Below, in pieces: positions 1 to 60,935 of a DNA stretch of 64,000 nt. The stretch's first letter is position 1, and each line of letters starts with the position of its first letter. The notes under the pieces were generated by a model. That model was not told the origin of the DNA and did no database searches. It was given only the letters and a program-made list of their open reading frames with translations. Location of the stretch: positions 1 to 64,000 of IMG/VR virus record IMGVR_UViG_3300021964_012561; one strand, 5' to 3'. This DNA is from a virus. The position numbers were made by a program, and so were the translations under genes.

Positions 1-3000
1 TTGTTGATTATCATACGACAGTTCAGTCAACTTTTAATCAGAGAGCTTTGCACATTGATTTTGACAAATCAGGTGTAGTAGCAGCTAGTAATACTTTGGA
101 TTGCGTCGGTGCATTAATAGAAATGGACGATTCAGCAACGAATAATGCTAGTTCAACTGTTCGAATGACAGGATTAGAAATTGACGTAGATTCTGCAAAC
201 TCGCAAGGAACGACTCAAAATGTTGGAATTGATTTAAATGTAATTAATGCGGATACAAACGAAGGTATTAGGATTAAAGCAGCAGACGGGACAGGATCTG
301 ACATTAAAATGATGTCTACTGCCAACAACAATGATTTTGCAACAATAGCAGTTGGAGCAAATGGAGAGACTACCATTACAACTGTTGATGATGATGCTGA
401 TAGTGCACACTTAAATTTAGTTGTCGATGGTGTTTTTAATGTACAAGTAGGTGGAACAACAAACTTTATAATCGATTCAACAAGTACAGTAATAAACAGC
501 TCCAGGAGGAATAAAGACACATTCATTAACGGAGATACAAATTATGGAACTTTCTTTTTAGATGCGTCAGATGAAAGTGTAATTATTGGTCATGAAGATT
601 TTGATTCAACTCCAACTGCTTCTGAAGTACCAGGATACGGCGCCGATGTCAAAATTATGCTATCAGGAACCGTTGGTACAAGAGGTAGCTCAACAAGAGG
701 CGTTGTTTTAATGCCAGGAGATTTGGTTGTTAGTGGTACAACGCATCATGAAAACAATGTTCAAATAACAGGATCTTTACAAGTTGACGGAGATATCTCA
801 CTACAACCATTGCATTATTTAAGATTCAACAATCCTGGAGATGATGATATTTCTATTAGGTCATTAGGCAATGATGATTTATGGATTGATGGAGATGATT
901 CTGTAAGTTTGGTGGCTGATGAAAATGTTGACATGTACATCGGAAGTCTTTCAAACACTTTCAATAGTGCGAACGGTTATCAAAGTTTAAATACGGGCAG
1001 AGGACAATTTGATTTTTCTGTAATGACAGATAACTACATGACGCTTTTGGTTTCTGGAGGAGATGATTCTGTTATAATTGGATCTGATGAAATAAATTAT
1101 GCTGCATTGGGAAGAAATATTCCTGGTTATGGTAATGATGTTAAAATAATGCTTTCAGGCTCAATAGGGACAAAAGACTCTTCAACAAGAGGGGTTGTCC
1201 TAGTTCCAGGTGATATGGTTGTAAGTGGATCTTTGTATGATGCTAGCGGAAATATAATTGATGCAACACCAACAGTGACAGGTACATTTCATGTACCAAC
1301 ACCTACTACAATGGTTACAACTTCTTCTGTTTCTTTTTCTGGAGAAGAAGGATTCAATTATGATCCATCAAACGTAGGCACTGATACACACTTCTTTGTT
1401 TCTGGTACAATCGGAAGTAAAGATACGGCAGTGGTTGGCACTTCTGTTTTTGGTGGCGATGTTGTAATTAGCGGATCTTCTTACCTGCTTGAAGATGCTT
1501 ACATGGGTCAAAATAAAAAACTTCTTTTTAGTGACTTAACAAATGCACAATACATTACTGGTTCCGGAACTGATGGAGGAATTTTAATTGATGCCGGCGC
1601 AGATCTTACAATTAAAAATTCAGGCGGAACATACTTTTATGTAGATCCACCAGGTCCGGACCCGATTACACTAACAAATCAATTTACTAATGAATCAAGT
1701 ACTTTTAATGAAAATAATTTAAATATTGATTTTAAGGTTAATACACAAAACCTAAATAACGCAATTTTTGTTGATGCATCAACAGATCAAGTCTTAATAT
1801 TGTCTGGAGGCGCAGGATCAAGTTTAAACCCGCAAGATTTTACAGATACTAACTTTTTTGTTTCTGGATCGATTGGCTCGCGAGGAACATCAACAAAAGG
1901 AACAACAGTTTTTGGTGGTGATGTTGTAATATCTGGTACTTTGCATGGCGGAAGCCCATTAAAAATAGCAGGTGGGATGGAAATTACCGGTTCTTTAACA
2001 ATGGAGGAAGGAAGTAAAATAGTTTTCCCATCAGGTGCAGGATTGACCGGTTCTTTGCAAGAGGTTAGTGAAGGAATACCTTATTTATTAGCTGGATCAA
2101 ATATAAGTATAACAACATCATCGAATGGTCAAGTCACAATTACATCAACAGGTGTCGCAGCTGGTGCTGGAGGATCCAACACGCAGGTTATTTTTAATAG
2201 TGGAGGAGCACAAGCTGGAGACTCAAACTTTACATTTAATAGTTCAACTGATACATTGACAGTAACTAATATCTCTGGTTCATTAACACAATTATCAGAT
2301 GGTACACCATACATCATACCTGGTACAAATGTATCAACGTCAACCGGGTCAAATGGTGCGATCACAATATCATCAACAGACACCAATACAACATACACAG
2401 CAGGTGATGGCCTAGATTTAGCAGGTACAGAGTTTTCTTTAGATATAAATGGTTTGTCTGTGGACTCAAATGCTGGTAATTTATTAGATTCTATAGCAAT
2501 TGCAGATAATAGTGATTCTAATAATGTTAAAAAAATAACTTTAACCCAACTCCAAACCTTAATAGATACTGATACAACTTATTCTACAGCAACTTCATCT
2601 GCATTAGGTTTAATAAAAATTGAAGACAATACAGAACAGACAGTGGCTGCCAATGCAGTTTCTTCAACAGCAAGTAGAACATACGGAATTCAGTTAAATA
2701 GTTCTGATCAAGCAGTCGTTAATGTACCATGGACTGACACCAATACAACATACACAGCAGGTGATGGCCTAGATTTAGCAGGTACAGAGTTTTCTTTAGA
2801 CCTTAAGGCTTCTGGAGGCCTTCAAATCGATGCAACAGAATTAGAAATTAATGACAGTATAGTTGCAACAATCAGTGGTTCAACTTTCACCGGAGATGTT
2901 AAGTTAGGTAATTTAACTTTGGACAACGGAGGAAACGAAATAGACGTAAGCTCTGGCGCTTTAACCTTAGATGTTGCAGGAAATATTGAGTTAAATGCAG

Positions 3001-4259
3001 ACGGCGGAACAATTGACTTTAAAGACGGAACGGAATCATTAATGCAATTGACAGATTCAGGAATTACTTTTGATGATGACACCGTAATCCAAGCAACAGA
3101 CGGAAATCTTTCTTTTAAGGCAACTGGTACAAATCATGATATAATATTTGCAGTTGATGATGCCGGCACTGACATAGATCCAGTTTTAACTATAGATGGA
3201 AGCAGCAACGGCAATCTATTACATACCCCTACAGATTCTGGCTATTTTGAAGTCAATGATTCAGACACTGACGGTTTATCCAGGTTGTATGGTTCGGGTT
3301 ATCTTAGATTAGATAGGTATTCAGATACAGCAACATTATCTCCAGTTATTAACTTTAGAAGATCTAGAGGGTCAGATGGATCAGAGGCTGCTGTACAAAG
3401 TGGTGACAGATTAGGACACCTTGGTTTTTACGGATATGATACAGCAGCCGGAGCAATTGCTGCAGAAATCATCGCTATCGCTGCAGCAAACCACGGGGAT
3501 GGAAGTGATTCTACAGATTCTCCTGGAAAATTAGAATTTTATACAACTCCTGACGGCACTTCTACTTCTACCCTGGCAATGACAATCAATTCAGATCAAA
3601 CTATCGACTTGACAGATAATTTAACAATCGGAGGAGATTCTGACGGATCTGATAGATTAATCACATTTGGGCATTCAACTTTAAAATCCGTAATTGGTAT
3701 CGACGATTCACAAGATGTGTTTGCAATCAATACAGACGCTTCTTTCGAAACAGATAATGATTTCGCAATTGACACAAATGGTAATGTAACAATGCCTAAC
3801 ACATGTTTCGTATCAGCACAACTAAGCACATCTGAAACAAATATAGCAATAAATACAATAACTGACGTCGTATTTGACACAGAACATTTTGATAATCAAA
3901 GTGCTTATAACAATACGACAGGAGTTTTTACTGCCCCTGTTGATGGCTATTATTTAGTGACAGTTAGATTGCAATTAGAATCTATAGATACAGCTGCATC
4001 TGAGTATAGAGTTGCTGTAACAGGTGGAGATGATACTGTAAAACCTCAATTCATGTATCATCAATTTGATCCAAATTTCTCATCAGATACTAGTAGTATT
4101 GCGCAATGGTCAATAGGTGGTACTTCTATGCACTATATGGATTCAGGTGATACAATCAAGGTGACAATTTACCAAGGTGCCGGAACACAACAAACTGATA
4201 TCGATGGTAGTACATCTGAAGGTATAGGATCAATTCTCCAAATAAGGCTTTTGGGATAA
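1..4259 (+). CDS. Giant mosaic tail fibre/adhesin with C-terminal C1q-like domain (5'-truncated)
   Basis: Frame is open back to base 3 (VDYHTTVQSTFNQRAL...). G/S/T/D-rich beta-repeat sequence with fibre motif VNVPWTDTNTTY. C-terminal VFDTEHFDNQSAYNNTTGVFTAPVDGYY is the C1q signature (~3801-4256). Confidence 0.8.
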   Translation, partial: VDYHTTVQSTFNQRALHIDFDKSGVVAASNTLDCVGALIEMDDSATNNASSTVRMTGLEIDVDSANSQGTTQNVGIDLNVINADTNEGIRIKAADGTGSDIKMMSTANNNDFATIAVGANGETTITTVDDDADSAHLNLVVDGVFNVQVGGTTNFIIDSTSTVINSSRRNKDTFINGDTNYGTFFLDASDESVIIGHEDFDSTPTASEVPGYGADVKIMLSGTVGTRGSSTRGVVLMPGDLVVSGTTHHENNVQITGSLQVDGDISLQPLHYLRFNNPGDDDISIRSLGNDDLWIDGDDSVSLVADENVDMYIGSLSNTFNSANGYQSLNTGRGQFDFSVMTDNYMTLLVSGGDDSVIIGSDEINYAALGRNIPGYGNDVKIMLSGSIGTKDSSTRGVVLVPGDMVVSGSLYDASGNIIDATPTVTGTFHVPTPTTMVTTSSVSFSGEEGFNYDPSNVGTDTHFFVSGTIGSKDTAVVGTSVFGGDVVISGSSYLLEDAYMGQNKKLLFSDLTNAQYITGSGTDGGILIDAGADLTIKNSGGTYFYVDPPGPDPITLTNQFTNESSTFNENNLNIDFKVNTQNLNNAIFVDASTDQVLILSGGAGSSLNPQDFTDTNFFVSGSIGSRGTSTKGTTVFGGDVVISGTLHGGSPLKIAGGMEITGSLTMEEGSKIVFPSGAGLTGSLQEVSEGIPYLLAGSNISITTSSNGQVTITSTGVAAGAGGSNTQVIFNSGGAQAGDSNFTFNSSTDTLTVTNISGSLTQLSDGTPYIIPGTNVSTSTGSNGAITISSTDTNTTYTAGDGLDLAGTEFSLDINGLSVDSNAGNLLDSIAIADNSDSNNVKKITLTQLQTLIDTDTTYSTATSSALGLIKIEDNTEQTVAANAVSSTASRTYGIQLNSSDQAVVNVPWTDTNTTYTAGDGLDLAGTEFSLDLKASGGLQIDATELEINDSIVATISGSTFTGDVKLGNLTLDNGGNEIDVSSGALTLDVAGNIELNADGGTIDFKDGTESLMQLTDSGITFDDDTVIQATDGNLSFKATGTNHDIIFAVDDAGTDIDPVLTIDGSSNGNLLHTPTDSGYFEVNDSDTDGLSRLYGSGYLRLDRYSDTATLSPVINFRRSRGSDGSEAAVQSGDRLGHLGFYGYDTAAGAIAAEIIAIAAANHGDGSDSTDSPGKLEFYTTPDGTSTSTLAMTINSDQTIDLTDNLTIGGDSDGSDRLITFGHSTLKSVIGIDDSQDVFAINTDASFETDNDFAIDTNGNVTMPNTCFVSAQLSTSETNIAINTITDVVFDTEHFDNQSAYNNTTGVFTAPVDGYYLVTVRLQLESIDTAASEYRVAVTGGDDTVKPQFMYHQFDPNFSSDTSSIAQWSIGGTSMHYMDSGDTIKVTIYQGAGTQQTDIDGSTSEGIGSILQIRLLG
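2379..2800 (+). repeat. Exact 65-bp direct repeat pair (2379-2443 and 2736-2800) inside the tail-fibre gene
   Basis: GACACCAATACAACATACACAGCAGGTGATGGCCTAGATTTAGCAGGTACAGAGTTTTCTTTAGA occurs twice, 357 bp apart and in frame (DTNTTYTAGDGLDLAGTEFSL). Confidence 0.95.
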
Positions 4260-9313: not shown

Positions 9314-10078
9314 ATGAACAAAATAGCAGAAAAAGGTTATCTTTATATTGCCTATGGTGAAGCTTTTACTAAAGAAGCATTAATGTCAATAGAATCTTTA
9401 AGAAGATACACTGACTTACCTATTGCAATTTACACAGATCAAAAAGATTTAGCAGAAGAAAAAAAAGATAAATTAAAAATTACTTTAATCGGTCAAATTG
9501 TTGCAAAACACTTAAGGGCAAAAGTAGATTATATGGATCAATCTCCATTCATAAATACGGTATTTATGGATTCTGATACTGTGGTTGTAAGAAATTGCGA
9601 CGACATGTTTGCTCTTTTAGAAAGATTCGATGTTGCAATTGTAAATGATTATGCAAGAAAAAGATTGAAATATTCAAAAATAGTTCCGGAATATGGTGAA
9701 ATTCCTTATGCTTTTTCTGAGGCAAATAGTGGTGTAATTGCTTTTAACAGTTCTACAAGAACAGATACTTTTCTTAAAATGTGGAAAGAGTATTTTTATA
9801 AGTACTATCAGCAAACAAACGGCTGGGATCAAGTAAGTTTTAGAATATCTTTGTGGAAAAGCAATGTAAGAATTCACCACATGCCTTTTGAATACAATGT
9901 CAGAAGCGCCGCAAATAGAGAAAAACAAAATCATTACAAAAGAGAATTTGGCGAAGATCATATGGAGTCAAGGATTATTCACATACATTACGATAATGAA
10001 ATACATAAAGGTATCTATAAAATTGATGACGTTGATGAGCTTGAAAGAATTGTAAAAGAAAAAGCTGTGGTATACTAA
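9314..10078 (+). CDS. GT-A glycosyltransferase (GT8/nucleotide-diphospho-sugar transferase-like)
   Basis: GYLYIAYG, FMDSDT (DxD), NSGVIAF, WDQVSFR, EYN, IIH. Confidence 0.75.
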   Translation: MNKIAEKGYLYIAYGEAFTKEALMSIESLRRYTDLPIAIYTDQKDLAEEKKDKLKITLIGQIVAKHLRAKVDYMDQSPFINTVFMDSDTVVVRNCDDMFALLERFDVAIVNDYARKRLKYSKIVPEYGEIPYAFSEANSGVIAFNSSTRTDTFLKMWKEYFYKYYQQTNGWDQVSFRISLWKSNVRIHHMPFEYNVRSAANREKQNHYKREFGEDHMESRIIHIHYDNEIHKGIYKIDDVDELERIVKEKAVVY

Positions 10079-27034: not shown

Positions 27035-27450
27035 AAAAGAAAAGAAACTGGGCTAAAAATAGGGAAATATTAAAATCAATTCCTAATCCTTCAAAAGAAG
27101 CTTATGAAATTAAAATGAAAGTTCCTGAATTAACTTTTGAAGGCTGCAGAGGTCAACCTGATTTTGCGCATCTATACATTACTTTTTATCCTAGCGACAA
27201 AGTTATAGAATTAAAATCTCTCAAAGAATACTTTTTTGCATTTCGAAGTCAAATTTATTCATATGAGCGCATAATTAATGTAATATATGACGACATGATG
27301 TCAGCATACGAACCTACAAGACTAAGATTGGTTATGGTTTGCAATCCTCGAGGCGGTATTTCATCAAAACTTACTGTTGATTCTGACTGGGGTGTTAGAG
27401 GCGGAAAGGACCAATTTAAAGATTGGGTAGGTCAACAAGAGGAATGGTAA
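27031..27450 (+). CDS. queF: QueF-like T-fold protein (type I), atypical active site
   Basis: GQPDFA, QueF motif ELKSLKEY, PRGGI; ATG overlaps the upstream stop (ATGA). Confidence 0.8.
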   Translation: MKKKRNWAKNREILKSIPNPSKEAYEIKMKVPELTFEGCRGQPDFAHLYITFYPSDKVIELKSLKEYFFAFRSQIYSYERIINVIYDDMMSAYEPTRLRLVMVCNPRGGISSKLTVDSDWGVRGGKDQFKDWVGQQEEW

Positions 27451-27687: not shown

Positions 27688-27691
27688 AAAG

Positions 27692-27721
27692 TTTACATTC
27701 TAGCAATCTGCTGTGTATTAT
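27692..27721 (+). promoter_or_regulatory. Sigma70-like promoter upstream of the GT4 pair
   Basis: TTTACA-N18-TATTAT in one of the few intergenic gaps, followed by a GGAG RBS. Confidence 0.45.
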
Positions 27722-28990: not shown

Positions 28991-29000
28991 GGAGAAAATT

Positions 29001-47500: not shown

Positions 47501-50164
47501 ATGAGAATTATTGAAGAGGCAAAGCCTGAAAGCAAAAAAATTTTTACTAACGTTAGGAATGTTCCACTTAAATCAAAATTGGTTAATATAACCACAGTTG
47601 ACAATGAAAAACTTTTTCATTATGATGTCTATTTAGAAATTAATAAAAGACAAGCTATACTGCAAAATTTAAAAAAAATTGAAATTAATCTCATAAGTGA
47701 CAAATCCAGCCTAAATAGGCAACGACCTAGTCTTTTTGACAATGTTGATACTAACAATACCAATGAGCTTAACTTGGTGGCAATTAATGCCGCAAGGATT
47801 AACTTCGACCAAGTTGCAAATATAAATTCAAATAATGAAATTTATAGTGTTGGTGAAATGTCTAGTGATGATGTATTTATAAACGAAAATCTAGGAAAGA
47901 TAACTTCTAACATGTTAACAAAACGGCCAGATAAAGAAACATTTGGATTTAAATCTAGGTTAGTCTTAAAGGAGCAACTAAATACAGGACGACCAAATTT
48001 AAAATTTAAAGATTACTTAACGCAACCTACAGTTAGTCAAAACAACGAAACAATTGAAAGAGATAAATTTAATTCAAACTATACAAGGTTTGTTAATAGC
48101 GGCATAGATCCAGCTACGATGTTGTCAAAGACTTTTGGAACAAATACAAATAGAGGTACATTAAGTAAATTTAGAGGAAGTTTTACTTCGTTTGTTTCTT
48201 CGCCAGCATCTGGAGTCAAGCAAAAGCTATATAGTTCGCTAACTAGCGGTATTGAGACAACAATCAATACAGAAGCTTCAAGTGTTGACTATGTATTAGA
48301 ATTAGAAACCCTTGCTAATATTGATGCGAAATTATCGCAGCGAATTGTATTGAGTGAAAGCTTGCTTCAAAACTATCCAACTGATGAAATTAGCATACTT
48401 TTTATTGCAAGGAATGATAAAAACGTCAAAATAGAATCAGGCACTGGCATAATAGAACACACCAAGGAAAAAGAAAAAATTAATTTTCCTAAGTTTGATT
48501 TTGAAGTTGAAGCAAATAGAACAACAACAGGTCAAAGTATACTTTCTATCAAAAACAACGAGTCATCACCTAGGCTATTTAATGTATATAGTAGACAACT
48601 TAATAATTACTTGCCTCAAGAATTAATACCGTTTGAAGAAAAAAGACTAGGTGTATTAGTTCAACCACGACAAAAAATTATTCTATTTAGAAAAGGAAAT
48701 TTTTTTAAGAAAAATCGTCCAGTCTTTTTTAGAGTCAACCCAGTCTTCGCAGAAAAAGAATACTCAAACTCTAAATTTGCCTCAATTACAACAGGAAGAA
48801 GATTAAGTAATTTAACATATGCCGGTATTTCTGCGATTATACAAAATGATCGAATTGCAATTCAGGTTAAAAATGTTTCTCAGGCAATAAAAAAAATAGA
48901 ACTGTATAGAAAAAATTTAACAAAAAAAGAAAGAAAATTTTTGCCCACACAATCAAAAGGTAGGTTAGGTAATAGTAATGAATTGTCTAGAAATAAGTTT
49001 AAATCTACTGCGTCTAACGATTTTAGCGCTATTTATAAATTTGTTGATGATGATGTTGAAGAATTTAATACTTATGAGTACAAAGCAGTTTTATATGATG
49101 AAAATGGTAATAAGTACATGTCATCATCAAGTGCAATCGAAAGATATTCAAAACCAACAGGTTATGTCAACATGACAGCTACGCAGTCTGGAACAGATAA
49201 TTCTTTTTCTGAATACAGGCAAATAACAATTAGCGGAAACGTTGAAAGAAAAGAAACAGATGCAGATAGGTTGTTTAAAGACTTATTTGGTAAATACTAT
49301 GACCTTTTCGAGGATGATCTTAAAGAAATCAAAGATTTGACTGGTATGTCTATTAATGTTTTGGTTGAAATGATTAACAGAGACAATTCTGAAATAACCA
49401 GATTAGGCGAATTATCAGTTGACAATGAAGGTAATTTTTCAAAAGAATTTTTAATTCCTAAAAAGCAATCATTAGCTATAAAGCTTATTCCTAGAGTTCT
49501 TCCTCCTGCTGATCTTCTTTCAAAATTAACAAAAAATTTAGAAAACTTGGCGCTAAAACAGCGCTTTGCACCTGTTAGCCCTAGCGCAAACGCTGCTTTT
49601 AAAACTAGATTACGCAATAGAAGCAGAGGTGCTGTGTCAGCTACTGGTGATAAATTTTCTTCTCGCATGTCTCGAACCAAAGGAAAAATAATTGATTCTA
49701 GAACAGATCTTAACAGAACAGATTTTGACTCATATTACGACGGAGACACTGGTGATGTTTTATATTTACTAATCGAGGGAGAATCTCCTTTTAATGTTAC
49801 AAATTTAGTCAATATTACGAACGCATCTATAGAATATTTAGAATTAAACAATGTTGATCAAGCAAATGACAACAATCAGAAAAGAGTTGGCATCAAAGAA
49901 GAATTTTATTTAGCAAATTTTAGTTTAAATAATGAAAGCGACAAATTAGATTTTTTACTAATGTCATTTGAAGAAAATGGAAATTTAAATTTCAGTGGTT
50001 TAGCATATGCGTCTAACAACACTTCACAAGTTAATTATGTTTACAAAACACCGTTACTTTACGGAAAAATTAGCTTTTTTGCTAGCCCAGTATTAAAAAA
50101 TGGTGAAACTTTGGCACCTATTTTAATTAAAACAATCTACAAAGATGATCAAGGAATCAAATGA
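47501..50164 (+). CDS. Large structural protein, Fn3/Ig-like segments
   Basis: IELYRK ... FVDDDVEEFNTYEYKAV pattern. Confidence 0.5.
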   Translation: MRIIEEAKPESKKIFTNVRNVPLKSKLVNITTVDNEKLFHYDVYLEINKRQAILQNLKKIEINLISDKSSLNRQRPSLFDNVDTNNTNELNLVAINAARINFDQVANINSNNEIYSVGEMSSDDVFINENLGKITSNMLTKRPDKETFGFKSRLVLKEQLNTGRPNLKFKDYLTQPTVSQNNETIERDKFNSNYTRFVNSGIDPATMLSKTFGTNTNRGTLSKFRGSFTSFVSSPASGVKQKLYSSLTSGIETTINTEASSVDYVLELETLANIDAKLSQRIVLSESLLQNYPTDEISILFIARNDKNVKIESGTGIIEHTKEKEKINFPKFDFEVEANRTTTGQSILSIKNNESSPRLFNVYSRQLNNYLPQELIPFEEKRLGVLVQPRQKIILFRKGNFFKKNRPVFFRVNPVFAEKEYSNSKFASITTGRRLSNLTYAGISAIIQNDRIAIQVKNVSQAIKKIELYRKNLTKKERKFLPTQSKGRLGNSNELSRNKFKSTASNDFSAIYKFVDDDVEEFNTYEYKAVLYDENGNKYMSSSSAIERYSKPTGYVNMTATQSGTDNSFSEYRQITISGNVERKETDADRLFKDLFGKYYDLFEDDLKEIKDLTGMSINVLVEMINRDNSEITRLGELSVDNEGNFSKEFLIPKKQSLAIKLIPRVLPPADLLSKLTKNLENLALKQRFAPVSPSANAAFKTRLRNRSRGAVSATGDKFSSRMSRTKGKIIDSRTDLNRTDFDSYYDGDTGDVLYLLIEGESPFNVTNLVNITNASIEYLELNNVDQANDNNQKRVGIKEEFYLANFSLNNESDKLDFLLMSFEENGNLNFSGLAYASNNTSQVNYVYKTPLLYGKISFFASPVLKNGETLAPILIKTIYKDDQGIK

Positions 50165-53100
50165 GTTTTAAAAGCTTTAAATCACCTTTTACTGTATACA
50201 ACAATCCGCTGCCTGATCCGTCACCTTTAACAGATAGCCCAGGAAACAGCCCCATACTTGTTTCTCGACCTCTTATAGTATCAGCAATCGCATTAACAAC
50301 AGAAAAAATTTCATCTGTTATAACTGTTGTTCCTGGAAGTAATGCAACAATTGAAGCAACAAAACATAAAGATACTTCTTCTTTTCATCAAAAACTATTT
50401 AAAAAAGGCATTAATGTTTTAAGGCCTGAGGTTTTACTTTCAAATGAGTTTTCTCCTATCGCTACTGGACGTCGTGTCGAAGAAAATCAAAATTCAATAA
50501 GTGTACAATACGGTAACAATACGTTTGTTGAGGTAACAAATACTGCAAGGCTTCTTGAATTGCATCAAGTATTAAAAGAAAATGCAATTAAATCTTCTGA
50601 AGCTTTAATTAAAAGATACGGTAAAATTGCATATGGGATTGGAGATGTAATTGCAAAAATGAGGACAGCAATGTCAGCACACGCCGATGATATATATGAC
50701 CAAAGTGTTACCAAAATGAGGCAAAACATAATCGATAGGGTTGTTGAAAATTCAAACAATATTGTTCGAACACAAATAGATCAACTTTCTGCTGATGCAA
50801 TTACACTAATAACTGACTATATTATTAATGATTTTATAGCAAAGGAATTAATTAAGTATACCGGTCAAATTTTTGATCACAAAGAAGAAATTGAAAGAGC
50901 TATTGAATTAAATAGGCCTGGCGCTTCGAACGTTAATGCAATTGAAATGATGGAGCAAGTAGGTAATCTTAATCTTAAAAATTTAATCGGAAATAGAAGG
51001 CTTAAAGCGTCAGTCGACAAGTCGACTAATTTTGAAAATATGCTTGACATGATAGGACAATTAAAATCTTATATAAACCTCGAAGACACTATAGATGATT
51101 TAGACAATGCAGAAATAGACCGACAAGAAGGCTTTGTTTATGGAACAAAAAAAGGAAGGCTTCAAGAATCATGCCGAATCTTAAAACAAATTAATTTTCC
51201 TGGTTGTTTTGGGGTCAATCAAAGAAAACTTAAAAGTGTAGTCGGAAATGAAAACAGGATGATTGGAAGTAATGTTCAAAACGCTTTTAACGCAACAGGA
51301 TTAGGAAATGGAGAAGCTGCAGCTGAATTAATAGCTGCACTATGTTTTGATCAAGTAATGGGAGCAACAAAGCTTGTTAAATCTTTATTAGACATTGATA
51401 ACATATTAGAAGACGGAAGAAAATTTGAAACAATTGAAGAGCTTTTTTCGAAAACTTTATTTGATTTTGACACAATACCTTCGCACATGAAAAGGCATGA
51501 ATTTTATTTTAGAACGAGAAAACAAAAAGGTGGCTCAATTGTAAAACATTTATTTGAAGAAAAGCAATCACCTTATGACGAAAAAACATACATTCCTTAT
51601 GAGACAAACAATACGATATCTGAAAAACTGTATGAAGAAAATAATTATTTTCCAGGAGAAGAAATATATTTTACATCAGCACTTAAAAGCAATGACACTA
51701 GTTTTGAAGAGCTAGAAAATTTTATAACTAAATTTAAAACTAAATGGGAAGATTTTTCTACACACTTAATTAAATCAGTAGGTCTAGACTTCGATTTTAC
51801 CGGTAAAGCATCGTCCCCAGATTTAAATACAATTGACCAACTTAACCCTATGAGTTACTTAAATTACTATTTAAATCTTCTAGCTGATGATTTAGAAGCT
51901 ACTTACATGCATGAAAACGTTGAAAGAAGAAAAAAAGGATTAGTTAGTTTAGCTATGCTCTTAAATAATGCAAGTAGTTTAAGCAGAACTGTTTCAAGTT
52001 ATAAGTCAGTTCTAATGAGTACTTTACTTTCAACTTCTGGCGCAGAGCTTTGGCAATCTGCAGACGAACCGGTTTGGGCATTTAAAGAAGACCAAACATT
52101 ATCTGATAAGGGTGAAGGTCTAGTCGGAACACTATACACAGAGGCAGAGGCACAAACAGAAAAAAGTTTTGTAAAAATACTTGAAGGTTTAGATATTGAC
52201 GATTATCCTAAATCTACCCGGGAGCATCCAGACGGAAGAGGGAATTACAATATAACTTTAACAGCGTCGGGTCTAAACCCTGAAGAAGGTGGCATAGGAA
52301 CTTTAGTACCCGGTAGTAAAATTCTCTTAGGGGATACTAATAATTATGTAGCGGGAGAAGATGATAGCACTTTTAAAAGATACTCATATGGTCAAGATGG
52401 TCTACTCGGTGGCACTATAGATAATGAACTTATGTCTACTTTAAACCTTGTTGATCAAGAAGACTGGCAAGGACCTTTAGCCATATTAGGGTTCCTCTTG
52501 ATCGTTGGCGTATTTGCAATTCCAGGTGTAGGCCCGGCTGTCGCAGCTGGGCTGGCAAAAATAGGTTTAGGCGGCCTTACTGCTGGTTACGTATCATCCA
52601 CCTTTGCAATCGGCGCCAGCGGTGCTATTGTGACCGCCGGCGGCACTTATATAGCAACCGGCTTATCTATAGGTGGCATCGCCATCCTTGCCGGCGGCGG
52701 CGCCGCTGCAAGCTATGCAATCGCAACTGCAGTTACGGAAGCATCTTATGAAACAGCAAAACCAGTGGGTGTAACGTTAACAGGCTCTTCTAATTATACC
52801 TTAGGGACAATAACAAATCAACCCGTTCAAATCAATGTTGAAGACAAAGAAAACCTTCCTATGCCTAATATTATGCCAGAAACGGTGTCTCATTTTAATT
52901 CTTACTTTTTTAAAAATAGACCAAGCGCAAGTCGACCAACAGGATTTTTAGAAATTGAACACCCGGGAGAATTTGGCCATGTTAAAAATTTCAGTGCTGT
53001 GCATCGTTCTTTTTTGATGCATTATTTCGCTGTTAAATTATTACAAAATACACAGAGGCTAAAGGTTTATATAAATACAGAGAAAAAATTTAAAATATCA

Positions 53101-54552
53101 ATTAAAATCACTAGAATGAAAGGATTAATTAATGCATTGAGAGGTAATCAATTATCAAGCGGAGCTGTGCGCAGTGAAATTCGAGCACATACCGAAACGA
53201 ATAGACTAATTAATCAGATTAAAAGAAAAATTAGAAAAAGACAAGATTATATTTTAGGTATTATCGGCTCAGTCAATAAAAAAATCTATGAATTAGAAAT
53301 ACAACATAAAAGACTTAAGAGTTTTATAACAACAGCTGAAGGTCGTTCTCCCCTTTTAAGAGAAAAATTAGAAGAAAATAATTTTTTTGAAGAAACAGTT
53401 ACGTTATTAAATCCGTCATATGTAGACTATATATCAAAATCATATTATCAAAATTTTGTTTTAAGCCCTACTTTTGATGATTCTACATTTGCTTTGTACG
53501 ACAAAGATGTTTTATCTGATTTAAAAATTATGTATCGAGTTTTGTCATCAACAAACTATGGTTTTCTAGAAAAAGAAAAATTTGGCAGAAAAAATGTTTT
53601 TCACATTGGGATTCCTTTAGGTTTGCTTGATTTTCTTCGTCGTCAAACATTTAAAGAAACAGGAGATCAGGATTATTTAGATTCAAGTTTAGTTAAAATA
53701 ACTATTTATAAAAATAATCAAATAAATTCTGAATTAAGCTACATACCTAAGCAATTTATTTTTGATTTGTCTAAGCATATTTTGCCTTTTATTTATGATC
53801 AAACTGGCAAGGCAATTTTTGCCAATCATATCGAAAATGCAACAGATGATAAAACCTTAGAAAAAATTATAAATGATATGGAGATTTTTAAGTATAATGA
53901 TATGTTAAACTTTGGTTTTAAAGCTAACGGATTAGGATTAAATGGTATAGTAGGTAATAGAAAGTCATCCGAATCAAATAATTATGATGAAAATTTTAAA
54001 AAAGAAGTTTTGCTTAATCATATTTTTGATTACTATTTAAAATTGTATACACGATTATCTTGCAATATTGATCTAAACGAATCAAGTTTTTTAATTAACT
54101 CTGATAACATTTTTTCAGGAAAATCAGACAATAGAATTGCTTCTGAATTTAAATCAGCTATTTATAGAAAATTTTTAAGAGACTATCCAGAAGTTGATGC
54201 AAACCCAGCTGAAAAAGAATATTTTTCAAGATCAATTAACATGATGAACAATTCATTATTGATGAGTTCAAATAATCGATTAAAAGAAATGATGACAGCG
54301 AATTGTTTTGAGAGAATATTTTCAGTATTTGTTAATGAAAAAGATTTTTTAATAGATTCTGATAATTCAAGTGCATACTCTGGACAAACTCAGTTTGGTT
54401 ATACAGGACAATTGCAGCAAGGTACAGTAAACTACACAAACGGAACAAGCCCCCAAGGTGAAGAAAACACTTTTGCAAGTGAAGTGTTTAACGAAAAAGA
54501 AACAACGATGTCTGGCTTTTCTGTAGAAATAGAAATATTAAAAAAATGGTAA
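50161..54552 (+). CDS. Large helical virion protein with internal Gly/Ala-rich hydrophobic segment
   Basis: 1463 aa; nearly uncharged ~90-aa stretch at aa ~771-860. Confidence 0.55.
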   Translation: MSFKSFKSPFTVYNNPLPDPSPLTDSPGNSPILVSRPLIVSAIALTTEKISSVITVVPGSNATIEATKHKDTSSFHQKLFKKGINVLRPEVLLSNEFSPIATGRRVEENQNSISVQYGNNTFVEVTNTARLLELHQVLKENAIKSSEALIKRYGKIAYGIGDVIAKMRTAMSAHADDIYDQSVTKMRQNIIDRVVENSNNIVRTQIDQLSADAITLITDYIINDFIAKELIKYTGQIFDHKEEIERAIELNRPGASNVNAIEMMEQVGNLNLKNLIGNRRLKASVDKSTNFENMLDMIGQLKSYINLEDTIDDLDNAEIDRQEGFVYGTKKGRLQESCRILKQINFPGCFGVNQRKLKSVVGNENRMIGSNVQNAFNATGLGNGEAAAELIAALCFDQVMGATKLVKSLLDIDNILEDGRKFETIEELFSKTLFDFDTIPSHMKRHEFYFRTRKQKGGSIVKHLFEEKQSPYDEKTYIPYETNNTISEKLYEENNYFPGEEIYFTSALKSNDTSFEELENFITKFKTKWEDFSTHLIKSVGLDFDFTGKASSPDLNTIDQLNPMSYLNYYLNLLADDLEATYMHENVERRKKGLVSLAMLLNNASSLSRTVSSYKSVLMSTLLSTSGAELWQSADEPVWAFKEDQTLSDKGEGLVGTLYTEAEAQTEKSFVKILEGLDIDDYPKSTREHPDGRGNYNITLTASGLNPEEGGIGTLVPGSKILLGDTNNYVAGEDDSTFKRYSYGQDGLLGGTIDNELMSTLNLVDQEDWQGPLAILGFLLIVGVFAIPGVGPAVAAGLAKIGLGGLTAGYVSSTFAIGASGAIVTAGGTYIATGLSIGGIAILAGGGAAASYAIATAVTEASYETAKPVGVTLTGSSNYTLGTITNQPVQINVEDKENLPMPNIMPETVSHFNSYFFKNRPSASRPTGFLEIEHPGEFGHVKNFSAVHRSFLMHYFAVKLLQNTQRLKVYINTEKKFKISIKITRMKGLINALRGNQLSSGAVRSEIRAHTETNRLINQIKRKIRKRQDYILGIIGSVNKKIYELEIQHKRLKSFITTAEGRSPLLREKLEENNFFEETVTLLNPSYVDYISKSYYQNFVLSPTFDDSTFALYDKDVLSDLKIMYRVLSSTNYGFLEKEKFGRKNVFHIGIPLGLLDFLRRQTFKETGDQDYLDSSLVKITIYKNNQINSELSYIPKQFIFDLSKHILPFIYDQTGKAIFANHIENATDDKTLEKIINDMEIFKYNDMLNFGFKANGLGLNGIVGNRKSSESNNYDENFKKEVLLNHIFDYYLKLYTRLSCNIDLNESSFLINSDNIFSGKSDNRIASEFKSAIYRKFLRDYPEVDANPAEKEYFSRSINMMNNSLLMSSNNRLKEMMTANCFERIFSVFVNEKDFLIDSDNSSAYSGQTQFGYTGQLQQGTVNYTNGTSPQGEENTFASEVFNEKETTMSGFSVEIEILKKW

Positions 54553-54565
54553 CAAGGGAGAATTA

Positions 54566-56599
54566 ATGCCTGCAGTTGAAAATGAAGAAGATTTAATTAG
54601 AGACAAAGAAATAACAAAAAAAATTGAATCTGCAAAAGAACTTACAGCAGATCTTCTTAGAAATCCTTCAGAGAGAGTCTCTGACCCAATGATTTCTTCA
54701 AACAATCTAACCAAGTCAATTTTATCAAAAACAGTTTTTAGCTATGATATTCCTGAAGTTGAAAATTTTGAATTAGAATTTGTATATAATTATTTTACTA
54801 AAGATGAACGTTTAGCTGATGCTTTAAGTTTAAATAAAAGAACAATTAACTTAGATGTAGAAAAAACATCTGAAGCATTATATCTTGCTACAAATGAAAT
54901 GCTACCCAGGTATGTTAAATTTAACTTTAAACCACCTAGGGATCCAAACACAACTATAGCATCACGAGTTGAAGAATTCTTGACAGAAAACTTAGATAAA
55001 ATTGTAAAAGAAGGCGGTGCATCTAATAAGTTTTTTACTGGAATTGAATTAAAAGACACAGGTGAAGAAAAAGCAATTTATAACAATTTAAAAGTAACTG
55101 GGTTTATTACAAGACTAGCTGAACCGGAAGATTCATCTCAGTCTGCTGCAAAAAAAATCGCGGATTTGCTTGATGATCCTAACGGTTTAACAGGGTCAGG
55201 TAAAAAATTTATTTTAGAATCATTAAATCAGTTAAAAGACGATCAATTGACTTTTGCTCCATCCGATGTTAGGCCTGAAGTTGCAAAATTTTCAAACAAT
55301 CCTGTTGGTAGGCAAACATTTTCAGTTAAATTTAATAATTTATTTATCAATGACATTGTCAAAAAGGCAAATAGAATGCCTACAGGAGTCTTTCAAGATG
55401 AAATTTTTTCATTTTCTAGGCTAACAGAAGATTATCAAAATAATATTTTGTCAAAAATTGGAAATGATCCTACGAAAATTTATGAAGATGAGTTTATAAA
55501 CAATGTAACAGCATTTGAAATACTCGCCGGCGATAATTCTGGTAATTCTCAAGCTGTAAGAGACATGATAAGAAATAAAGGCTTTGAAATTAAATTATTA
55601 GGTTATTTAATTGAAAAGACCGAAATATTCCCTAATGAATCAGTTAGAGTATACCCGCCTTTTGTAGTTAATGATCCCCAAAAATTATTTGTTAAGGACG
55701 ATAATGTAAGATATGGTGGAAACTATACTTATACAATTAGAACAATTTGCCAAGTTACAACGCCTGTTGTTAAAATAAATTTAGATGACCCTATTTTAGA
55801 CGAAATAGTCTTAGCAAGATTTTTAATGACATCTGAAGGTACAACAAATTCAGTGCTTTGTACGGAAAAAGTACCACCGCCTGTACCAACTGCGATTAGA
55901 CCTAGGTTTGATTTTAAACTTAAGCAACCTATTATAAATTGGCAATTTCCTGTTAATCCACAACGTGACATTAAAAGATTCCAAATTTTTAAAAGGCACA
56001 ACATTAATGAACCTTTTACTTTAGTTGCTGAATATGATTTTGATGATTCTTTATCTAGAACAAATGTAAATGAAAAAGCGCTAGATAAAAATTTAATAAA
56101 AATGCAATTTCCTAAAACTAGTTTTATAGATAAAAAATTTAGTATTGCATCAACTCCAATTTATGCCATTGCTAGTGTCGACGCACATGGAATGACATCA
56201 AACTTAAGTACACAAATACAAGTTCGCTATGATAAAATTAAAAACAAATTAATTTCAAAATTAATCAGTAGAGAAGGTGCACCAAAGCAATATCCAAACA
56301 TTTACTTAGAAGACGATACGTTTAAAGATGTAATAAGCGTAAGTAATTATAAAAGAATGCATTTGTTTTTTGATCCTGAGTATTATAGGGTTTTAAAAAA
56401 TGATACATCAGGCAATCAAGAGAACTTAATTATTGAAAAAGACTTAAAATTAATTGCAGCTAATCCGGATAATTCAACTTATTCAATTCAAATTTTAAAT
56501 TTAGATATGCAAAAAGATGGAATAATTAATATTAAAATCAAAGACGAATCTGCAATGCCGCAGAGAGTCTCTTCGACTACAATTGTCAACAATAATTGA
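54566..56599 (+). CDS. Structural protein with Fn3-like domains
   Basis: DDNVRYGGNYTYTIR; PPPVP..INWQFP..DIKRFQIFKR..YAIASVDAHG. Confidence 0.55.
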   Translation: MPAVENEEDLIRDKEITKKIESAKELTADLLRNPSERVSDPMISSNNLTKSILSKTVFSYDIPEVENFELEFVYNYFTKDERLADALSLNKRTINLDVEKTSEALYLATNEMLPRYVKFNFKPPRDPNTTIASRVEEFLTENLDKIVKEGGASNKFFTGIELKDTGEEKAIYNNLKVTGFITRLAEPEDSSQSAAKKIADLLDDPNGLTGSGKKFILESLNQLKDDQLTFAPSDVRPEVAKFSNNPVGRQTFSVKFNNLFINDIVKKANRMPTGVFQDEIFSFSRLTEDYQNNILSKIGNDPTKIYEDEFINNVTAFEILAGDNSGNSQAVRDMIRNKGFEIKLLGYLIEKTEIFPNESVRVYPPFVVNDPQKLFVKDDNVRYGGNYTYTIRTICQVTTPVVKINLDDPILDEIVLARFLMTSEGTTNSVLCTEKVPPPVPTAIRPRFDFKLKQPIINWQFPVNPQRDIKRFQIFKRHNINEPFTLVAEYDFDDSLSRTNVNEKALDKNLIKMQFPKTSFIDKKFSIASTPIYAIASVDAHGMTSNLSTQIQVRYDKIKNKLISKLISREGAPKQYPNIYLEDDTFKDVISVSNYKRMHLFFDPEYYRVLKNDTSGNQENLIIEKDLKLIAANPDNSTYSIQILNLDMQKDGIINIKIKDESAMPQRVSSTTIVNNN

Positions 56600-56666
56600 C
56601 AAAACTTAAAAAAAATTTACTTATAAAAAAAAATAGTTAATATTTAGCAAATAATAGGAGAAAATA

Positions 56667-57350
56667 ATGGGTTTTTTAGATCACAGTACAAATAACATTA
56701 TTGTTGATGCTGTTTTGACTGACATAGGTCGTCAATCGTTAGCAAGAAATGATGGATCTTTTAGCATTTATCAGTTCGCATTAGCAGATGATGAAGTAGA
56801 TTATGAGATTATTAAACAATTTGGAAGAACTGTAGGTAAAGAAAAGATTGAAAAAAATACTCCAGTGTTAGAAGCATTAACGCAAGGTAGTTTAGCTTTA
56901 AAATATCCGCTAATAAGTGTTTCAAACGAATTTATGACACACCTACCGTCAATGACGATAGATGCAACATCACCAGTTACTTTTGACAGAAATTCAAATA
57001 TTACGCTTAAAGAAATTAAAGTTGACATTGCAACTACAACTGGTGTTGAAATTGAATTTGATTTATTAGATGCAGAACTAATGGTTGAAGTAAATAACAT
57101 CTTTTTAAGACTATCAGGTGAAGCTCCAGACATTATTTATACTGACAATATTGCTGTATATCGATATCCAACCGAACAAGAATCAGCAGGTGACACAATT
57201 ACTACTCGAATACCTCTTGTAAGAAAGGATTTTTCTCAAACAACTTTTAACACATATAAAGTTTCTGGCCAGAGTTACATAAGAACTTATGTTAAAGTAA
57301 CCGGTCTAAATTCAGGATTAAGCAAAACTTTTGAAGTACAAATATCATAG
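56667..57350 (+). CDS. Tail/baseplate fibre-attachment-like structural protein
   Basis: VLTDIGRQSLA..IYQFALADDEVDY resembles the tail-collar (DUF3751) N-terminal motif; AGGAG RBS. Confidence 0.6.
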   Translation: MGFLDHSTNNIIVDAVLTDIGRQSLARNDGSFSIYQFALADDEVDYEIIKQFGRTVGKEKIEKNTPVLEALTQGSLALKYPLISVSNEFMTHLPSMTIDATSPVTFDRNSNITLKEIKVDIATTTGVEIEFDLLDAELMVEVNNIFLRLSGEAPDIIYTDNIAVYRYPTEQESAGDTITTRIPLVRKDFSQTTFNTYKVSGQSYIRTYVKVTGLNSGLSKTFEVQIS

Positions 57351-57360: not shown

Positions 57361-58590
57361 ATGGCAACATTTAAAACAATATCTAGTGCTGATATAAAAA
57401 CAACTAGATCAAATCTTAATCAATTAATTGATTTTGTAGAAGAAGATATATCCGGTTCTACTACAAGAAAAACATACGAAGTGTTCGTAACTGGAACAAC
57501 AGCAGACAATGGTGTTACATCTTCTTTGTATCAAACAGTTTTTGATCAAAATTTTCAATTGCAAACTGCAAATGAGCTATTTGATTTAACTGTAGGATTA
57601 TTTTTTAATGGTGGTTCTGTAACAGGATCTTCTACAGGAACAGATGACAATGATAAGTTGCTTTTCCCGTCTGAATCTTTAATGATGAGAGAAAAAGTCA
57701 ATATTTATAGACAATATGCACAGCTGCTTTTAGGAAATGCTGAATCTAGATTTGTGGCTCCTTTTGGTAGTACTACTAATAGAGACAATATTGATGAAGC
57801 CTTGTTTATAAACTTTAAGCGTCTTTTTGTAAGAGATGGAATTAAAAGAGAAACTTTTGCAATGAGATTTTTTCAATCTGCATCTGTTTCTTCGCCATCT
57901 TTAGACGGTTTAGGTCCTTCCGGTCAATCTAACATTTTTAGAGGAACTGTTTCAGGTTCAATGATTATAACAGACGTAGGATCATCTGCAAACATTGAAA
58001 GATCTAATACGGGCGGAGATGTAGGTAATTTAGTTAACTCAGCAAAAACATCAGAAAGTGTAGGACTTTTATTTTACCAACAAGGTATTGCTGTTTTAGA
58101 CTTGGCAAAAATTACGTCCGGCTCACAAAAAATGAGTGGCTCCATAGATGCTGTAGGCAATACAGCAGGAAAGATATTGTTAGGTGCCAACATGCAAGGT
58201 AATTTACAAGCTAAGTTTATACCTGATTTTATTGTATCCGGATCTATTGATGACATTGTAAAACACGTTTCAACTGTTAGGTTTGGCAGTGGGTCACAAA
58301 CATTTTTAACATTTCAAAATAACACACAAATTAATTCAACATTAGTATTTTGCAGAGCAACAGCAGATGAATTTAACTTTTCTTCAAATCCAACATATAC
58401 AGAGTCATCTGGTAGAATAAAGGTGATCGATTCTAATGTAGTAGCTGGAACTCAGAAAGCATTTTCTTTTGTAACAACTGTCGGACTTTATGACGCCAAT
58501 GAACAACTTCTCGCAGTTGCAAAATTAAGTCGACCTGTTGAGAAAAATGATGAAAAAGATTTGACCTTTAGAGTGCGATTAGATTTCTAA
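57361..58590 (+). CDS. Structural protein with tail-collar-like C-terminus
   Basis: VTTVGLYDANEQLLAVAKLSRPVEK..RVRLDF. Confidence 0.65.
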   Translation: MATFKTISSADIKTTRSNLNQLIDFVEEDISGSTTRKTYEVFVTGTTADNGVTSSLYQTVFDQNFQLQTANELFDLTVGLFFNGGSVTGSSTGTDDNDKLLFPSESLMMREKVNIYRQYAQLLLGNAESRFVAPFGSTTNRDNIDEALFINFKRLFVRDGIKRETFAMRFFQSASVSSPSLDGLGPSGQSNIFRGTVSGSMIITDVGSSANIERSNTGGDVGNLVNSAKTSESVGLLFYQQGIAVLDLAKITSGSQKMSGSIDAVGNTAGKILLGANMQGNLQAKFIPDFIVSGSIDDIVKHVSTVRFGSGSQTFLTFQNNTQINSTLVFCRATADEFNFSSNPTYTESSGRIKVIDSNVVAGTQKAFSFVTTVGLYDANEQLLAVAKLSRPVEKNDEKDLTFRVRLDF

Positions 58591-60935
58591 TGTCTTTTAT
58601 TAAAATAGGAAACAATTTTTTTGAACAGTCTACCTTACTGCTGCGACCTAAAGTTAATTTTGTGTCATCATCGTTAGGTATAACCGGTTCTGAGAAAATT
58701 GTTTCTAATTTTTCTAAATGTATTAAACAGATAATAGACCCAAAAAAGCAAAGTTTAAATCAAGTTAATGATCGCTCATATGACGAATTAGATTTTCAAA
58801 TTTTAACATATATTGATAATGCTGCCAGTCAAGTAAGACAAGGATTAAGTTCTAACATAGAAAATTATTTAAATAACTATTTAAATTCTGTTAATGATGC
58901 TGTTAATGATGACAGATTTAGTAAATTAATTAATGTGTTTAGATTTGATGTTCCTGTTTCTTATAATCAAAATTATAATATTAAAAATAATTTAAGAAAA
59001 AGTTTAATACCTTTTCATCAGCACAGATATTCAGATGCTGGGTTTCATTATACAAATTACAATACATTAAATTTTTATACCGGTTCAGGATCTCCTCACG
59101 ACTCTTGTTTAATTTATCCAAATAGTAACGACATATACACACCTAGTAAATCTTTTTCATTGAATTTCTGGGTTAATCCTAGATATAGTCAAGATAATAA
59201 AAATTTACCATACAGTGCCGGCACAATTTTTCACATGTCTTCATCATTATGTGTATCTTTAATCAGTGGCTCTTCATCTGATAAAAATAATTTATCTTCT
59301 GATTTTAAAATTATGCTGCAACTAAGTCATAGTGCTGACTCTCGACCAGACACAATTAATTTTTCTAACTTAATTTATCCAAACGACTTAATTTTTACAT
59401 CATCTAATACTTTAAAAAAGAACAATTGGCATAACGTAACAATTAGATGGGGTGCGAATGAGTATGATAATTATGATGGCGCAATTGTAATTGATGAAGT
59501 AGCAACAGAATTTAACATACCTTCAAGTTCACTTTTTCAGTCAAATGAAATAATTACCATAGGAAACTACTTAAATACAGATAAAGTTAATGCAAGTAAA
59601 TTTTTTAACAATACTGTTGACACTGTTCATGGTTTAACTGTACTAAACGAATCAACTTCAGACGAGCCTAGTAATCAAAAAGAAATTTTAAAAAACGGGT
59701 TAAACGCCGAAATTCATGATATAAAACTTTTTAACAAGTATTTAAATGATACAGAAGTCTATTACATTAAAAATTTCGGCATAAAAAAAGAAAAACTTTT
59801 AGGCAGCGATTCAGCTAACATTTATTCAAATTTGCTTTTTTATGTGCCGGTATTCTTTTATCCTATAACTAAAGAAAGAGAAATTTTAGTTACTCCATTT
59901 CAAACTATAGCAGGGTCAACTACAAATGATCCTTTTAATGTCCAATTTTCTTTTGGAGTCGGTGGTAAACACTTAAACTTAGAAAATTTTACACGTGAGT
60001 TTATTCAAGGCGAATTTCCTAGGCTACAATCACTAACAGGATCAGAGCTGGCAAATACAATTCAAAACATAACGGCAGATCAGTACATTTATCACACAGC
60101 GTCGCTAGTCAGAAGAAATAATTTTGTTCTTCCAAATGATAATGGTTTGTTTCAACCTGATTATTATGCAATTCAGGCATCTCCAGCGTCTAGTAGTAAT
60201 AGTTATAAAAAGACTGGCACTTTTGTAGATTACTCTAAAATAAACTTAGAAGAATTAATACCGACCAGTTCTTTATTTCCCGGCCTAGTCTTTCAAGATG
60301 GGTCAATATTTAATGATATTGTAGGCACTAGGCCAGAAAATCCAGGTGTGGCTCCAGGATCTGTTTTATCAATTGCACAAAGAACTAGAGACGTTTCTAG
60401 TAATGAAATAACTGTATTTGACATATCAAACCTTTTTTATGGAAACAGAATTAACCCAGGGTCATTTGAAATTATTGACAATAATCTAACAGGGTCAAAT
60501 CAAAAAGTTAAGATTACATTAAAAGATAACAAAAAAGGGAGTTTATATAGAGCAGACGCTTTGACTAAACATTCAACATGGAATAACGTAGGTGATATTC
60601 TTTATGATGAAGGTATGGTAATTGTCAAGTCTCCTCATTTATTTTACTATTGTAAAGATTCAATTGACATGTCGTTTAAGGGTGAACAAAATATTCATAC
60701 ACTTATTTTAAACGTACCCATTGAAAAACAATTATTTAATTCTTCATCAAACTTTACGTTCCAAACTTTACCACCTAGCAATAACATTAACGATACTGAT
60801 TTAGAATCTTTTTACATAACAGCAGTTAACATTCATGACGATAATTTTAATATTATAATGAAAGCTCATTTCGCTCAGCCTATTTTAAAAACTGAAGATG
60901 ATGAGTTTGTAATAAGATTAAAACAGGATTTTTAA
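58590..60935 (+). CDS. Structural protein, LamG-like domain plus C-terminus paralogous to 57361
   Basis: FSLNFWVNP, WHNVTIRW, EIHDIKLFNKYL; C-term ITAVNIHDDNFNIIMKAHFAQPILK..RLKQDF. Confidence 0.65.
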   Translation: MSFIKIGNNFFEQSTLLLRPKVNFVSSSLGITGSEKIVSNFSKCIKQIIDPKKQSLNQVNDRSYDELDFQILTYIDNAASQVRQGLSSNIENYLNNYLNSVNDAVNDDRFSKLINVFRFDVPVSYNQNYNIKNNLRKSLIPFHQHRYSDAGFHYTNYNTLNFYTGSGSPHDSCLIYPNSNDIYTPSKSFSLNFWVNPRYSQDNKNLPYSAGTIFHMSSSLCVSLISGSSSDKNNLSSDFKIMLQLSHSADSRPDTINFSNLIYPNDLIFTSSNTLKKNNWHNVTIRWGANEYDNYDGAIVIDEVATEFNIPSSSLFQSNEIITIGNYLNTDKVNASKFFNNTVDTVHGLTVLNESTSDEPSNQKEILKNGLNAEIHDIKLFNKYLNDTEVYYIKNFGIKKEKLLGSDSANIYSNLLFYVPVFFYPITKEREILVTPFQTIAGSTTNDPFNVQFSFGVGGKHLNLENFTREFIQGEFPRLQSLTGSELANTIQNITADQYIYHTASLVRRNNFVLPNDNGLFQPDYYAIQASPASSSNSYKKTGTFVDYSKINLEELIPTSSLFPGLVFQDGSIFNDIVGTRPENPGVAPGSVLSIAQRTRDVSSNEITVFDISNLFYGNRINPGSFEIIDNNLTGSNQKVKITLKDNKKGSLYRADALTKHSTWNNVGDILYDEGMVIVKSPHLFYYCKDSIDMSFKGEQNIHTLILNVPIEKQLFNSSSNFTFQTLPPSNNINDTDLESFYITAVNIHDDNFNIIMKAHFAQPILKTEDDEFVIRLKQDF

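Follow-up and report, generated by a model that had tools for sequence, protein, structure and literature searches.

The locus described here raises the question of why one tripeptide should be so frequent in a set of otherwise dissimilar phage virion proteins, and whether it serves there as a signal for modification. The window, a stretch of 64,000 nucleotides (positions 1 to 64,000 of IMG/VR virus record IMGVR_UViG_3300021964_012561), makes up the first 64 kb of a phage contig that is 114.6 kb long, and the tripeptide is [ST]G[ST], a glycine with serine or threonine on either side. An original prediction, based on hand counts, had held that it is enriched in a subset of the virion proteins and might be the O-glycosylation acceptor of neighbouring glycosyltransferases. 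The enrichment was confirmed. It extends to some ten tail, baseplate and fibre proteins that face outward, in which the motif, preceded by a hydrophobic residue, is three to eight times as frequent as chance would have it.

Enrichment in outer virion proteins

Motifs were counted in the translations of open reading frames (ORFs), and expectations were taken from shuffles of whole proteins or of local blocks of 10-40 residues. With proteins named by the first nucleotide of their genes, the recount agreed exactly with the six counts given originally: 19 sites in the tail fibre, 7 in 36024 (1.2 expected), 9 in 37550 (1.9), 8 in 42080 (2.8), 9 in 57361 (1.4) and 7 in 58590 (1.0), amounting to 59 sites in 5,712 amino acids (aa). 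Whole-protein shuffles gave an expectation of 17.4, and shuffles of 40-, 20- or 10-residue blocks one of 18.3-19.5 (z 9.4-10.7). The hydrophobic lead-in that had been described was also borne out, 43 sites being preceded by V, I, L, F, M or A against about 6 expected (z ~15). When all tripeptides were ranked, SGS came first (26 against 5.3 expected, z 9.0) and TGS second (18 against 4.1, z 6.8). The permuted motif [ST][ST]G showed no excess (16 against 17) and G[ST][ST] a mild one (29 against 17). The related triplets SAS, TAS and SSS, which had been reported as common too, fared less well, [ST]A[ST] showing no enrichment (13 against 11) and [ST][ST][ST] a weak one (56 against 40-46).

Over the whole contig, ten proteins held 78 sites against 23.5 expected and the remaining 84 ORFs 18 against 27. 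The ten comprise the six proteins already named, 46449 (2 sites against 0.25 expected), which had been missing from the original list, an adaptor and both sheath paralogs. The sheath paralogs are moderately enriched; only one of their 13 sites falls within the conserved C-terminal sheath core, the other 12 lying elsewhere, as judged by position relative to PHROG match ranges. Baseline counts were obtained for the major capsid protein (2 sites against 1.7 expected) and for the ORFs of 47501-57350 (2, 1, 1 and 0 sites). The inner baseplate proteins (gp5-like, gp25-like and gp6-like) have no site and thus provide a negative control within the window; for the gp5-like and gp6-like ones this is just as had been stated. 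The enzymes encoded at 4335-30161 do contain the 2 sites attributed to them, but with about 5 expected their contrast with the carriers is mostly compositional. No avoidance of the motif beyond the general baseline was found in non-virion proteins, either here (18 against 27) or in T4 (23 against 27).

Within the tail fibre, residues 201-800 hold 16 of the 19 sites, and four internal repeats account for 8 of the 19. Two fibre segments that had been singled out as poor in the motif, residues 801-957 and 1042-1418, do have zero counts, but this depletion is not significant (0.7 expected in the former; 1.95 in the latter, p 0.13). The sites are isolated, from 12 to >100 residues apart, and no uninterrupted collagen-like Gly-X-Y triplet arrays were found in the window proteins. 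The carriers have no mutual sequence similarity save for a C-terminal domain that 57361 and 58590 share.

The features to which these results refer are as follows.

3-4259, + strand: tail fibre of 1418 aa with a C1q-like tip, open at the contig 5' end
4335-26171, + strand: sugar-nucleotide/glycosyltransferase island of ~22 kb, between fibre and baseplate genes
26195-30161: PD-(D/E)XK nuclease, QueF-like protein, then GT4-GT4 (Pfam)
27743-30161, + strand: the GT4 pair, 415 and 386 aa, both matching PF00534
31559-36024, + strand: inner baseplate genes, gp5-like, gp25-like and gp6-like
36024-37535, + strand: 503-aa protein adjoining the gp6-like baseplate gene
37550-41020, + strand: 1156-aa protein with a LamG domain
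42080-46417, + strand: 1445-aa protein with a LamG domain
46449-47492, + strand: 347-aa protein
47501-57350, + strand: four presumed structural ORFs of 887, 1463, 677 and 227 aa
57361-58590, + strand: 409-aa highly conserved virion protein with >4,400 metagenomic homologs
58590-60935, + strand: 781-aa protein with a LamG/pentraxin-like domain
Contig 89549-96112: tandem tail-sheath paralogs, 1047 and 1128 aa

Residue specificity

The nine-base codon strings at the motif sites are diverse and both Ser codon families are used. These varied codons therefore place the signal in the protein and not in the DNA, and a DNA-level motif was ruled out. Information content is low outside positions -1 and +3, a hydrophobic residue being found before the motif in 64-73% of cases and after it in 49%.

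Both hydroxyls are needed, as [ST]G followed by any residue other than Ser or Thr occurs at 0.81x expectation, and G[ST] preceded by any such residue at 1.27x. The excess is lost when either Ser/Thr is swapped for Asn/Asp or for Ala/Cys. Among 183 orthologs, [ND]G[ST], [ST]G[ND] and [ND]G[ND] were found at 0.80x, 0.54x and 0.72x respectively, compared with 4.3x for [ST]G[ST] and 7.9x for [ST]G[ST] with the hydrophobic lead-in. In the ten enriched proteins of this phage, in immuto and in Mel-JY01 (two cultured phages introduced below), the excess of the Asn/Asp variants is likewise small or absent, at 0.5-1.7x against 3.1-5.0x for [ST]G[ST]. Asn and Asp are the best turn formers, and are structural equivalents of Ser and Thr in Asx and ST turns; the lack of enrichment of their variants therefore argues against plain beta-turn propensity. 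The requirement for two hydroxyls around the glycine suggests either that something reads these hydroxyls or that they mediate a packing of high specificity. Other short motifs were not enriched, including D-[ST]-[AILVMT] (46 against 40.3 in the ten enriched proteins), N-x-S/T (125 against 124.9) and DGY, DSD, DTG and [ST]GxT.

With regard to codon choice, Ser and Thr codons ending in C are over-used in motif sites (ACC 22% against 6%, TCC 11% against 3%, on small numbers). Judged from the commonest nine-base strings, this bias apparently lies at the position before the Gly codon.

Inheritance among relatives

Orthologs were taken from 80 uncultured IMG/VR loci retrieved via the 57361 family. 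Enrichment among those of 36024, 37550, 46449, 57361 and 58590 amounts to 4-5x, rising to 6-10x with the hydrophobic lead-in (36024, 5.2x and 10x respectively; 37550, 5.2x; 46449, 4x with n=13). Those of the gp5-like and gp6-like proteins, 47501, 54566 and 56667 are not enriched, the gp6-like orthologs having 7 sites against 10.6 expected. A further 222 large unassigned ORFs of the relatives, mostly with other functions, are also at baseline (208 against 217). The excess thus recurs by family, and does so in orthologs at 27-60% identity.

The nearest cultured phages, all distant, are Flavobacterium phage immuto, Microcystis phage Mel-JY01 and Rhodothermus phage RM378. The syntenic blocks of immuto contain 73 sites against 27 expected, one tail spike alone having 28 against 9.9, and those of Mel-JY01 contain 55 against 13.7, with SGS as the top tripeptide. 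Whole-genome scans found 10 enriched ORFs in immuto and 12 in Mel-JY01. RM378 was negative in a 33-kb sample and shows a weak excess genome-wide (59 against 31). The structural proteins of T4 are without excess (19 against 22.5), and the best tripeptide in its outer proteins reaches a z of only 5.6. A general property of phage tail proteins was ruled out by T4, and also by the non-enriched structural proteins of the same phage.

At the level of single sites, six motif positions of the 57361 family recur in over 50% of the 120 homologs compared, with S31, S33, S293 and S295 invariant and one central Gly alternating with Ala. The 58590 family has four conserved motif columns, while other sites come and go; each protein carries about 4 sites outside the columns, more than the 1.9 or so that would be expected over its full length. 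One or two positions apparently persist as far as immuto, Mel-JY01 and RM378, an assignment made uncertain by alignment offsets; others are lineage-specific.

Two kinds of repeat were also observed in the cultured phages. Mel-JY01 encodes an 805-aa protein (record 635-3049) in which ~450 residues form collagen-like Gly-[Ser/Thr]-[Ser/Thr] triplets with 112 [ST]G[ST] matches, and a 180-aa protein (record 9444-9983) with a shorter array of this type. The larger one is reminiscent of Bacillus BclA, the collagen-like region of which is O-glycosylated. In the tail fibre and spikes of immuto (L099:21538-28902), HAE, SHA, YSH and AEG are extremely over-represented (HAE 10 against 0.16), which indicates a ...SHAEG... 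fibre repeat unrelated to [ST]G[ST].

Structural context of the sites

There are no solved structures for the fibre, 57361 or 58590 families, and the AlphaFold model of 57361 was too poor for use (predicted local distance difference test, pLDDT, of 56.6). The alignment-based AlphaFold model of 58590 (pLDDT 82) contains a LamG/pentraxin-like jelly roll. All seven sites in this model are in coil or at strand ends, five of the seven no more than 4 residues beyond the end of a strand. Pairs of motifs often have one strand between them, with 12-23 residues from one motif to the next. LamG domains as the source of the motif were ruled out, since they hold at most five of the 59 sites.

Glycosyltransferases and the sugar island

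The island at 4335-26171 encodes two GT2 proteins, a GT29-like protein, a CMP-transferase, aminotransferases and formyl-, methyl- and sulfo-transferases (Pfam), and shares its strand with the flanking fibre and baseplate genes. The GT4 pair downstream of it was found in every relative whose contig covers the region, at 46-64% identity in the uncultured relatives and 31-34% in immuto; it is also present in Mel-JY01 and, in divergent form, in RM378. The two genes stay adjacent in the relatives, in immuto and, weakly, in RM378. Immuto (L102:4965-8884) shares a module of PD-(D/E)XK nuclease, small ORF, GT4 and GT4, and the sugar island, which lies upstream of the nuclease-GT4-GT4 module here, lies downstream of it in immuto. 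In Mel-JY01 the ortholog of 27743 is divided into ORFs of 198 and 313 aa (record 83441-84539), for which a frameshift, an error in sequencing or a genuine split could be responsible.

Most of the enriched relatives that could be checked also keep sugar genes. Among cultured phages, the distribution of the GT4 pair is that of the 57361 homologs, save for one weak GT4 match in Synechococcus phage S-CBS4. The link to neighbouring glycosyltransferases that was part of the original prediction is circumstantial: the pair is kept wherever the region is covered, but the co-occurrence comes from a single clade.

Interpretation of the motif

The reading tentatively preferred here, although it could readily prove wrong, is that the motif marks serine and threonine for a modification, of which O-glycosylation by enzymes of the phage itself is the most plausible kind. 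Hydrophobic-[Ser/Thr]-Gly-[Ser/Thr] would be a brief tag for recognition, borne by those virion proteins of the clade that face outward and lying in most cases at the passage from a beta-strand into a loop, and its hydroxyls would be modified post-translationally in the infected cell. The clade-conserved adjacent GT4 pair (27743 and 29001), as candidate reader, would prime the site, and the variable sugar island (4335-26171), as candidate glycan source, would extend the glycan. Attachment at the sites, the enzyme responsible and the accepting hydroxyl of the two are matters that we infer. That the motif is a recognition signal, as originally proposed, agrees with a pattern which is family-specific, inherited, absent from T4, protein-level and hydroxyl-dependent and which Asn and Asp do not mimic; the glycosylation part of the proposal is partly supported.

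Several observations weigh against modification by these enzymes. The modification is a prediction from the sequence pattern, and in 57361, the best conserved of the proteins, a number of sites do not vary, as is typical of structural positions. In the 58590 family the preference of the sites for coil and insertions is mild (68%, against 60% of all residues). The GT4 proteins are generic: they match no characterised protein glycosyltransferase, and every NCBIfam match is far under its cut-off (for GtfA, TIGR02918, 17.8 bits against 574.6). Enrichment persists in Mel-JY01 despite its split GT4 ortholog, and RM378 carries a divergent GT4 pair yet has only its weak excess. In the distant relatives tens of kb separate the glycosyltransferase genes from the tail genes, and in two of these relatives the glycosyltransferase genes are on the other strand. 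Among the relatives checked, none combined enrichment with absence of the GT4 pair, and the co-occurrence of pair and motif, being that of one clade, is one phylogenetic event and not an independent test. The relatives also carry ThyA-family genes, which makes DNA glycosylation a possible job for the glycosyltransferases; a role in the modification of DNA or of host glycans is possible.

A purely structural origin has a substantial probability. The motif would be an unmodified strand-end or corner element of the clade's beta-sandwich and beta-solenoid outer-tail modules, in which the hydroxyls form side-chain/main-chain hydrogen bonds or Ser/Thr ladders, the glycine permits tight packing, and the spread over several proteins reflects shared architecture. 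The strand-edge pattern of hydrophobic residues before and after the motif is as such an element would have it, and so are the coil or strand-end location of all seven sites in the 58590 model, the frequent bracketing of single strands and the positions that are invariant over 120 homologs, to which the one or two apparently (if uncertainly) kept as far as immuto, Mel-JY01 and RM378 may be added. At residue 314 of the 37550 protein, the surrounding segment also resembles what we take to be the conserved C-terminal LamG motif. A structural element of this kind is, however, less easy to reconcile with the failure of Asn and Asp to be enriched at either flank, where they are at expectation or depleted, with the absence of an excess from the beta-rich fibre and baseplate proteins of T4 and with the baseline counts of the large presumed structural proteins 47501, 50161 and 54566. 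Furthermore, the carriers are unrelated in sequence, LamG domains account for few of the sites, and new sites keep arising in the variable regions of the 58590 family.

The hydroxyl-specific pattern across families calls for a reader without identifying which, and this could be something other than a glycosyltransferase, such as a clade-specific assembly chaperone, a kinase or another Ser/Thr-modifying enzyme, for example the putative PAP2-Fic protein at 63073. This is improbable: an ortholog of 63073 was found in 14 loci compared with 79 for 57361 (a comparison limited by 10-kb flanks), no kinase or chaperone candidate was identified, and nothing ties these genes to the motif. That composition, low complexity, internal repeats or a signal in the DNA should have produced the excess as an artefact is scarcely credible. 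The carriers are indeed rich in Ser, Thr and Gly, some of the fibre sites do lie in the four internal repeats, and the count of one Mel-JY01 protein does come from collagen-like Gly-X-Y triplets. Local composition was nevertheless ruled out by the shuffles of 10-40-residue blocks, which still gave z >9, and permuted motifs of the same composition lack a comparable excess. Internal repeats were rejected as the source, as they account for only 8 of the 19 fibre sites, and with only one copy of the repeat retained there would still be 53 sites against ~17 expected. The diversity of the codon strings and the recurrence of the excess in diverged orthologs speak against an artefact as well.

If the motif is taken as a glycosylation signal, a broader and rather unlikely extension is that an abundant aquatic phage clade, running from ~300-kb marine jumbo phages to the cultured immuto and Mel-JY01, coats its tail, baseplate and fibres with glycan at a new O-glycosylation sequon, hydrophobic-[S/T]-G-[S/T]. 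Cytoplasmic reading of this sequon would fall to the GT4 pair, and rapid evolution of the islands would vary the glycan in the manner of an O-antigen borne by the virion. Were the motif a sequon, sequence would suffice to predict which virion proteins are glycosylated in an aquatic phage group of great abundance, the presence among tail genes of sugar islands on the scale of O-antigen clusters would be explained, and the orphan GT4 enzymes would have a defined peptide substrate. Should it prove structural instead, it would still be an unusually sharp signature of the clade's outer-virion proteins. The presence of the same signal in two cultured phages makes the question directly testable at the bench.

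Comparison with known systems

To our knowledge, virion glycosylation by phage-encoded enzymes has been demonstrated only for mycobacteriophages, and we know of no acceptor sequon in phage tail proteins. The mycobacteriophage case appears to be the closest phage precedent: there too the glycosyltransferases are encoded by the phage, structural virion proteins are the presumed acceptors and a glycan coat has been proposed. Its virion glycans are described at the C-termini of capsid and tail-tube subunits (Freeman et al., 2023, as cited in PMC12619734). The candidate sites here are in contrast internal and dispersed, in fibre, baseplate-periphery, sheath and neck proteins, with the capsid at baseline.

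With regard to the enzymes, the GtfA/GtfB pair of serine-rich-repeat adhesins is comparable to SdgA and SdgB of staphylococci, and the phage genes resemble both pairs in being two adjacent glycosyltransferase genes of GT4 (GT-B fold) type. The acceptors of both pairs are long tandem dipeptide arrays, whereas the sites here are isolated tripeptides, apparently at strand-loop junctions of folded domains, and by score the phage GT4 proteins are not members of the GtfA family. SdgB and SdgA are two cytoplasmic glycosyltransferases that modify stepwise a short Ser motif in the Ser-Asp repeat adhesins (PMC3794999), and this stepwise modification of proteins exposed at the surface would be the closest working analogy.

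Among bacterial sequons, the O-glycosylation sequon of Bacteroidota is D-[ST]-[AILVMT], and the system that uses it acts outside the cytoplasm. It shares with the motif described here a three-residue, order-specific form, as does N-x-S/T, but neither of the two is enriched in these proteins. The N-x-S/T sequon is used by cytoplasmic N-glycosyltransferases of the HMW1C type, while flagellin glycosyltransferases have no known sequon (PMC12645811). In a topical literature search that covered titles, abstracts and review text, no description of an [ST]-G-[ST] sequon was found. Asx and ST turns are similar in having small polar residues on both sides of a Gly, and may be so in their position at strand ends or in loops; in these turns, however, Asn and Asp are interchangeable with Ser and Thr, whereas here Ser and Thr alone are enriched.

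The contig and its gene order

The contig has a G+C content of ~31% and carries nearly all of its genes on the + strand. It is ~28% complete (CheckV) and its relatives span 309-340 kb, so that the source is probably a jumbo phage. It may belong to the "moraphage" lineage, aquatic jumbo phages with predicted Bacteroidota hosts and four core glycosyltransferase groups (PMC12619734).

In the baseplate/fibre module the gp25-like and gp6-like proteins are recognisable, and a PHROG match is absent for most of the others. Terminase, portal, major capsid protein, a gp13-like adaptor and the two sheath paralogs are encoded downstream of the window. It was also observed that the C-terminal halves of 57361 (residues 180-409) and 58590 (residues 552-781) are homologous, with 22% identity.

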